Shown here piece after piece: positions 2,567-3,560 of a DNA stretch of 64,000 nucleotides. Source of the stretch: Myxococcota bacterium (lineage in GTDB: Bacteria > Myxococcota_A > UBA9160 > UBA4427); NCBI GenBank assembly GCA_965250285.1, contig OZ252299.1:4928001-4992000 (forward strand), written 5' to 3'. Position 1 is the stretch's first letter; every line of letters starts with the position of its first letter. The notes under the pieces were generated by a model. The model was not told the DNA's origin and ran no database searches. It was given only the letters and a program-made list of their open reading frames with translations. The position numbers were made by a program, and so were the translations under genes.

Positions 2567-3238
2567 TCAGCCGCGCTTCAGCTCGGTCTCGATCGCCGTT
2601 TCGAGCTCGGCCGGTTGAAAACCGAAGGGGCCGGGCGCGCCCTGGTAGGCGATCTGCCCGCCCCGGCCCACGAGGTAGAGCCGGTCGGGCAACGCGCCAT
2701 AGGCCGAGGCGATGCGGTCGTCGACGTCGTCGATCACCACGGGCATCTCGATCTCGAGCCGGATCGCGCAGCTGGCCGCGACGTCGGCGCGCTCGTCATT
2801 CGTGGTCGGGTCGACGACCTCGATGCCCTCGTCCCGGTTCATGTTCACGACCCAGCCGTCTTCGGGGTGGGCCTCGCGGATGTAGACGACACCGAACTCG
2901 ACGCGGTCGCCGAAGCGACGCCACAACTCATGCAAGGCACCCAACTGGACGCGGAAGGGCGGTCAGGTGTACGAGCCGAAGATGAGTGCGACGGGCTTCG
3001 TCGCGGCGAGCGCCGAGAGCTGAAACATGCGCTCTGTTTTCTTTGCCGTACCGCTACTGAAATCGAAGATCGGTAGCTCGAAATCGAATGCCGAATCGCC
3101 GACGGCGAGATCCGCCGCCGACAGATCGGCGTGCTCCTGCATGACGTCGGGCAGACCCTTGGGCGAATCGGCGGGCGTGATGGCCTTCCAGTCGAACCCG
3201 GGCGGCAGCTTCGGAGTGTCTCGCTCGTCATCGGCCAT
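2567..3238 (-). CDS. Iodothyronine deiodinase-like selenoprotein (thioredoxin fold), Sec at TGA 2965-2963
   Basis: ORFs 2963..3316 and 2567..2944 share a frame; the joined sequence reads PVALIFGSYT-U-PPFRVQL...VYIREAHPEDGW...AYGALPDRLY...YQGAPGP; GAGGAGG RBS before ATG 3238. Confidence 0.88.
2937..2952 (-). promoter_or_regulatory. Candidate bacterial SECIS hairpin
   Basis: GCGUCC-AGUU-GGGUGC stem-loop; the apical loop starts 16 nt after the UGA and has G at position 2. Confidence 0.5.
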
Positions 3239-3370
3239 GGTGTCGCCTCCTCGCACATGCCCTTGGTCGGGTGCGCGCATCGTGGAGAGCATGACCGCGC
3301 GACGCCGGGCTGTCACGCCCGACGCGCGTCGAGCCGGCTCGATGCGTGTCTGCGATGCGGCTCGGGCGCT

Positions 3371-3560
3371 TCAGCCCGCGCTTCTTGAGCCTGACTCGTT
3401 CGGGACGCCGCTCAGCCCGCGCTTCTTGAGCCTGACTCGTTCGGGACGCCGCTCAGCCCGCGCTTCTTGAGCCTGACTCGTTCGGGACGCCGCTCAGCCC
3501 GCGCTTCTTGAGCCTGACCGGTGCGGGGGGCGCTCAGCCCGCGCTCGCCTTGAGCTTGAC
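3371..3560. repeat. 41-bp tandem repeat (3 exact copies and 1 partial) resembling the 3' end of the adjacent gene
   Basis: TCAGCCCGCGCTTCTTGAGCCTGACTCGTTCGGGACGCCGC at 3371, 3412, 3453, partial at 3494; gene end at 3534 reads TCAGCCCGCGCTCGCCTTGAGCTTGAC. Confidence 0.95.

Follow-up and report, generated by a model that had tools for sequence, protein, structure and literature searches.

Selenoproteins related to the animal thyroid-hormone deiodinases (DIOs) have been known from bacteria since 2005, when both selenocysteine (Sec)- and cysteine-containing forms with bacterial SECIS elements were reported (PMC1088965), as the sequence-only reading of this locus had noted. The Global Ocean Sampling data contributed 22 deiodinase-like sequences, in a 2008 table that gives no motif for them (PMC2398784), and reviews tabulate the family with a UxxC motif for its representatives (PMC9312934, PMC13188914). 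Because the 2008 table assigns the family no motif, UxxC is not treated here as defining. A 2026 review describes these families as largely uncharacterised (PMC13188914), and our literature search, to which most subscription papers were inaccessible, found no activity reported for any bacterial member. The gene described here is an ordinary member of this bacterial family and, given the 2005 description, its existence is not surprising.

A model for the family is available as NCBIfam NF038285 ('deiodinase family protein', 347 positions), which joins an EF-hand part to the catalytic domain. The present protein matches the catalytic domain with E=1.1e-56, and its score of 192.8 bits is below the cut-off of 250. 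Many Cys-type homologues among proteins P0122-P0270 are fused to EF-hand or TPR repeats; the four EF-hand-fused Cys homologues that we tested all pass the NF038285 cut-off, and P0122, P0128 and P0177 each contain two DIO domains.

Two open reading frames on the minus strand of a 64-kb stretch of myxococcotal DNA (the window), at 2963-3316 and 2567-2944, lie in one frame and are separated solely by a TGA at 2965-2963. Read through from the ATG at 3238, as had been proposed from the sequence, they yield a 223-aa protein that has U at position 92 and contains FGSYT-U-PPF, YIREAHPEDGW and YGALPDRLY. The features of the locus are the following.

3238 (ATG) to 2567 (stop TGA 2569-2567), minus strand: coding sequence for a deiodinase-like selenoprotein of 223 aa (PF00837, phmmer, AlphaFold2, Foldseek)
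2963..2965, minus strand: in-frame TGA, codon 92, predicted selenocysteine in S-Y-T-U-P-P-F (TGA or Cys in homologues; DIO catalytic position)
3246..3252, minus strand: Shine-Dalgarno-like GAGGAGG, 7 nt 5' of ATG 3238 (sequence)
3288..3316, minus strand: possible sigma-70-like promoter, GTGACA-17 nt-CATGCT (by eye, 8/12 matches)
2937..2952, minus strand: predicted bacterial SECIS, a 6-bp stem GCGUCC/GGGUGC with two G-U pairs and the loop AGUU at 2946-2943 (family covariation)
2852..2884, minus strand: DIO loop-D edge motif YIREAHPEDGW (alignment to Dio3)
2768..2770, minus strand: Cys157, the only Cys of the protein and predicted resolving cysteine (conservation and hhalign to glutathione peroxidases)

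The read-through product matches Pfam PF00837 with E=4.6e-30 and 105.1 bits (cut-off 27), and it is the only match to this family in the host genome. In phmmer alignments with mouse Dio3 (E=1.1e-22) and Dio2 (E=4.7e-21) the TGA codon falls on the catalytic position. Positions 2567..3238 are a single conserved bacterial gene related to the animal thyroid-hormone deiodinases. The product has no N-terminal membrane anchor, in keeping with the sequence-only reading: the best 19-residue Kyte-Doolittle mean is 0.81 for segments starting at residues 1-45 and 1.27 over the whole protein. The expectation that standard annotation would split such a gene is also borne out, as 106 of the 120 best database homologues are pieces of 123-145 aa covering 50-64% of the query, which is the size of the post-TGA half. 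With relatives mostly called as fragments, the spread of the family is undercounted.

Upstream of the gene, the same-genus locus L030 preserves both promoter-like hexamers and the 17 nt between them. A sigma-70 promoter scan found no promoter, the GTGACA/CATGCT candidate falling under its threshold. An Rfam search of the 64-kb window returned a tRNA and nothing else.

The genome encodes the machinery for Sec insertion that the proposed reading of the TGA calls for: a tRNA-SeC(tca) identified by ARAGORN, together with selA, selB and selD, each above its family cut-off. The selD match (L004, G000:C1 5312234-5313154) belongs to an open frame of 781 aa, uninterrupted by stops over the matched region, and is possibly a fused form. 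A homologue of the gene is matched in 21 of 61 genomes of the same order, the host included. A selA match accompanies the gene in all 20 relatives that have it, and the six genomes lacking a selA match also lack the gene, although these kin are not independent observations. Codon 92 is TGA in 20 of the 21 places in the host and related genomes that cover it, a count that leaves out two further matches that are fragments not reaching the site; the single exception, TGG, belongs to a degenerate match at a contig start.

Scanning species genomes yielded 253 confirmed relatives. In the best 80 of these 253 loci, whose record titles name Myxococcota/Deltaproteobacteria, Gammaproteobacteria, Chloroflexota, Actinomycetota and others, the site is TGA in every case and never TAA or TAG. 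Cys occupies it in 132 of 150 more distant representatives, and in 11 of the 14 full-length homologues among the best 120 database matches; the remaining three have Trp (two) or Ser (one). The sequence-only reading had asked for Cys or Sec at this position in homologues, and that is the prevailing pattern. One locus, L029 (G036:C180), is a second deiodinase-like copy that is degenerate and truncated, with the TGA still there.

A pseudogene, two separate genes, or a TGA read as Trp or Cys instead of Sec would each account for the interrupted frame. Potential restart codons (ATG, GTG or TTG) do lie within 12 codons past the TGA in 58 of the best 80 of 253 loci, and the two Trp-containing homologues could be taken to favour decoding as Trp. 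However, a TTG downstream of the TGA mostly belongs to the SECIS loop, and the Trp residues may be TGA codons misread by gene callers. The gene and its genome neighbours end at TGA, so TGA is a normal stop in this host. The unvarying TGA of the 80 loci lies inside the fold, at the catalytic residue, and both halves are under purifying selection. The dN/dS ratio is 0.16-0.32 for the downstream half, as had been anticipated, and 0.17-0.48 for the upstream half, in both below 0.5, in the 11 unsaturated pairs of 13 (the two saturated pairs were set aside). These alternatives are very improbable, and UGA92 is very likely decoded as selenocysteine.

Bacterial SECIS elements are described as having a small G-containing loop just 3' of the UGA (PMC1088965). 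The hairpin predicted here has such a loop, and the case for it comes from the family, the window's own hairpin being weak (-5.3 kcal/mol). Single-sequence folding of the post-UGA region of the window gave a significant z-score in none of four windows, so that the hairpin is invisible in the window alone and is exposed only by family comparison. In 69 distinct homologous sequences, a 6-7-bp hairpin with a loop starting with AG lies approximately 17 nt after the UGA, with a mean of -9.8 kcal/mol, compared with -5.5 in controls that exchanged arms among sequences (-6.4 at best in 300 runs) and -4.7 after synonymous recoding. It is the most stable among 160 in-frame windows. The codons that form the loop are constrained as well. 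Within the best 80 of 253 loci, the loop Gln codon is CAG in 80 of 80 cases versus 182 of 241 elsewhere downstream, and the loop Leu codon is TTG or TTA in 62 of 62 versus 106 of 735.

Two registers one base apart show 77-78% pairing and covariation of 0.39-0.40, values reached by none of 500 shuffles and compared with at most 0.21 for other slides, in a set of 43 hand-picked distinct rows and with shuffles that ignore relatedness. SelB-tRNA-Sec would read the UGA using this hairpin 17 nt downstream. A crude genome-wide scan for TGA/SECIS combinations was noisy, missed the gene at 2567..3238 and is of no use for counts.

Other genes in the host genome appear to contain recoded TGA codons. Eight of the 21 AhpC/TSA matches in the genome contain one in-frame TGA, all on contig G000:C1 at the following positions.

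1311505-1311903: TGA-containing AhpC/TSA gene
2346227-2346625: TGA-containing AhpC/TSA gene
3873714-3874112: TGA-containing AhpC/TSA gene
2320460-2320849: TGA-containing AhpC/TSA gene
3754623-3754922: TGA-containing AhpC/TSA gene
4424399-4424620: TGA-containing AhpC/TSA gene
2490323-2490541: TGA-containing AhpC/TSA gene
4544160-4544387: TGA-containing AhpC/TSA gene

These genes, three of which carry UxxC according to the crude genome scan, suggest a large set of putative Prx-like selenoproteins. One of 12 CMD matches also contains one TGA, and with the AhpC/TSA matches this makes recoding appear common in the host. Two AhpD/CMD-like CxxU candidates and one GrdB/PrdB-like UxxC candidate were found on the same contig near 3186092 (minus strand), 3573817 (plus) and 3706377 (plus).

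An AlphaFold2 model of the protein built from a 77-row alignment has a mean pLDDT of 94.7, with the N-terminal segment included from residue 11. Foldseek ranks mouse Dio2 (9h48, E 3.3e-14) and Dio3 (4tr3, 2.0e-13) first, with TM scores by target length of 0.80 and 0.74, and the next match follows at 4.5e-10; a first model of the protein gave the same top ranks. Residues S89 and T91 correspond to Dio3 Ser167 and Thr169, and Y119, E122, H124, P125 and W129 to Tyr197, Glu200, His202, Pro203 and Trp207, with Dio3 numbers counted from Sec170 in the phmmer alignment. The Ser, Thr, Tyr, Glu, His and Trp of this set are relay and pocket residues of the DIOs (PMC9141512, PMC11592359). Five of the six residues of the Ser/Thr/Tyr/Glu/His/His relay are kept. 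The sixth, Dio3 His219, is replaced by Pro144, and Pro is found there in all of the best 80 of 253 loci; human DIO1 H174A is still active (PMC9141512).

Neither DIO cysteine is present. The proximal one is replaced by Tyr90 and the distal one by Met165. That Tyr90 takes the place of a Cys of Dio3 had been noted earlier from the sequence; in Dio2 the residue is Ala. Pro184 and Pro202 stand at the Phe258 and Arg275 positions, where Pro is a DIO1-like feature (PMC11592359). Conservation at residues 88-96 and 122-129 is partly by construction, as these formed the locus-search patterns, whereas N134, P144, C157, P184 and R186 lie outside the patterns and are invariant, each in 80 of the best 80 of 253 loci.

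Cys157 may have a counterpart in glutathione peroxidases (GPx). When the protein was aligned by hhalign with the three Cys-GPx proteins of the host, Cys157 fell on a Cys 46 residues past the GPx catalytic Cys (probability 62%, E=7.4e-5). In SaGpx, C36 and the resolving cysteine C82 are likewise 46 residues apart, and modelling of that protein has the helix unwinding when it is oxidised (bioRxiv 10.1101/2025.11.24.690144). Cys157 is present in 100 of 132 representatives with Cys92 versus 4 of 16 without it, a comparison uncorrected for kinship. From this alignment and co-occurrence, a redox cycle between Sec92 and Cys157 is probable.

Such a pairing raises the alternative that the selenoprotein reduces organic or lipid hydroperoxides as a thioredoxin-dependent peroxidase, an atypical 2-Cys GPx-like enzyme with Sec92 peroxidatic and Cys157 resolving. 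The GPx alignment and the association of Cys157 with Cys92 are what this alternative would predict, and it gains further from the Prx-like module in the fold with its AhpC-TSA match, from the many TGA-containing AhpC/TSA genes of the host, and from genes for lipid and aromatic oxidation that are common near homologues. However, we looked in the protein for the GPx signature motifs and the Cys/Gln/Trp/Asn tetrad and found them absent, the DIO-specific loop-D residues are kept, and the genome already has three Cys-GPx genes. We regard the peroxidase as rather unlikely.

The proteins that follow the DIOs in the Foldseek ranking, namely ResA, DsbE and thioredoxin-like proteins, point to another possible role, that of a TlpA/ResA-like selenoprotein thiol-disulfide oxidoreductase whose substrate would be a partner protein or some other oxidised sulfur or selenium group. 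Pro184, in the loop preceding the third core strand, is in line with this role, as are the EF-hand and TPR regions fused to relatives and the UxxC motif given for a family representative in reviews (PMC9312934, PMC13188914). The motif here is U-P-P-F, with Phe at the second-Cys position in 79 of the best 80 of 253 loci, and the DIO pocket residues are retained. Both observations count against an oxidoreductase, which is improbable.

In the literature that we found, reductive deiodination is the sole reaction demonstrated for the DIO network, and for that reason dehalogenation is our best guess. We tentatively suggest that the protein is a soluble deiodinase-fold reductase that deiodinates or debrominates a small halogenated aromatic compound. 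Following the mechanism proposed for animal DIOs, Sec92 would accept the halogen as X+ and the ring would be protonated by the network of T91, E122 and Y119. Since the proximal and distal DIO cysteines are replaced by Tyr90 and Met165, Cys157 would resolve the oxidised Sec once helix 147-160, on which it lies, has unwound locally in the manner of thioredoxin-dependent GPx, and the enzyme would then be re-reduced by thioredoxin or a small thiol.

Several observations count against dehalogenation. The relay His is replaced by Pro, no neighbour is conserved, and no halo-aromatic pathway gene recurs among the 104 flanking ORFs scanned. The 2005 authors expected a redox role other than thyroid-hormone deiodination (PMC1088965), and a deiodinase homologue of Dictyostelium was found not to be the dechlorinase of DIF (PMC3205185). 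The EF-hand and TPR fusions of Cys-type relatives would fit protein-directed redox activity at least as well.

The genomic context is diverse. When ORFs were clustered across the best 80 of 253 loci, no neighbour family recurred in more than seven of them, apart from the gene's own halves and one large cluster consisting mostly of shadow ORFs. Pfam searches of 104 of the 256 picked flanking ORFs gave scattered families and no recurring halo-aromatic pathway gene. Only the same-genus genome shares the gene order of the window (a MXAN_5187-C gene, the deiodinase-like gene, tesB and a nitronate-monooxygenase gene in opposing orientation), and a tesB homologue is nearby in one other locus. We do not adopt a functional link to tesB because this synteny holds only within the genus.

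A 41-bp tandem repeat (4.3 copies, 95% matches; window 3371-3545) lies between the MXAN_5187-C-domain gene and the deiodinase-like gene. It occurs at a single place in the host genome and was not seen in the matching intergenic stretch of the same-genus locus L030. The L030 gene sequence is the same as that of L008 (G001), and its record is titled 'uncultured Spirochaetaceae'. That label may be wrong, as the upstream gene has the MXAN_5187 C-terminal domain and several close homologues are in Myxococcota/Deltaproteobacteria records.

In a tree of 96 selected rows, made by a quick method with a midpoint root and without the animal sequences, the gene falls in a 17-row clade (96% support) that mixes Myxococcota, Chloroflexota and Gammaproteobacteria records and is apart from most same-order homologues; we draw no donor or direction from it. 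A same-order Sec clade of 11 loci (L010-L014, L016-L021; 100% support), in which the residue at the Dio3 His219 position is still His, would be a better candidate for true deiodinase activity. In a related Sec-type subgroup (L022-L025), loop-D is longer and the N-terminal region is hydrophobic and probably spans the membrane, a layout closer to the anchored animal DIOs than that of the window's protein.

More broadly, the locus may represent a clade, widespread and hidden from annotation, of soluble bacterial selenoenzymes that use the DIO site for reductive dehalogenation of natural iodo- and bromo-aromatics, with recycling by a GPx-type resolving Cys. We consider this proposal as a whole doubtful. 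If it is true, bacteria would have a dehalogenase free of both cobalamin and flavin, and the thiol peroxidases would be linked mechanistically to the thyroid-hormone deiodinases. For annotation, the point is that gene calls break up this gene and most of its relatives into fragments. An anchor-free, predicted soluble and confidently folding member with a Sec92/Cys157 prediction is also an easy test case for the function of the family, and the same protein bears on how the animal deiodinase chemistry arose.

Like the family described in 2005, the protein is bacterial, matches PF00837 and has an in-frame TGA with Cys homologues, a SECIS just downstream and a G in its small loop. Unlike the UxxC representatives of the review tables, it has U-P-P-F and the distal Cys157, the second Cys being absent, although published figures or supplements may already show U-P-P-F. 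It also differs from the NF038285 model in being without the N-terminal part. A conserved Cys in the insertion helix may correspond to the resolving Cys of thioredoxin-dependent Cys-GPx such as SaGpx, with which it aligns in a weak profile match (62%); in contrast, the signature motifs and the Gln/Trp/Asn tetrad are missing. This analysis adds that the DIO Ser/Thr/Tyr/Glu/His/Trp network is kept, that both DIO cysteines, the relay His and the anchor are absent, and that Cys157 aligns with the GPx resolving position, which suggests the Sec92-Cys157 cycle.

The closest relatives with solved structures are mouse Dio2 (9h48) and Dio3 (4tr3/4tr4). With animal DIO1-3 the protein shares a Trx/Prx fold that includes the DIO insertion, the position of Sec, the Ser, Thr, Tyr, Glu, His, Pro and Trp residues and the Glu/Asp-Arg pair. 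The Pro-Pro after Sec is as in DIO2 and DIO3, and the Pro at the Phe258 site is as in DIO1. However, identity is approximately 30%, there is no membrane anchor, and Tyr and Met replace the proximal and distal Cys. A Pro replaces the relay His, and a Pro (variable) the Arg/Lys clamp. The SECIS lies within the coding region, and the bacterial protein has in addition a conserved N-terminal T-P-x-D-S-P segment. In lacking the anchor and the two cysteines the protein is not an animal DIO, yet in fold and catalytic core it is DIO-like.
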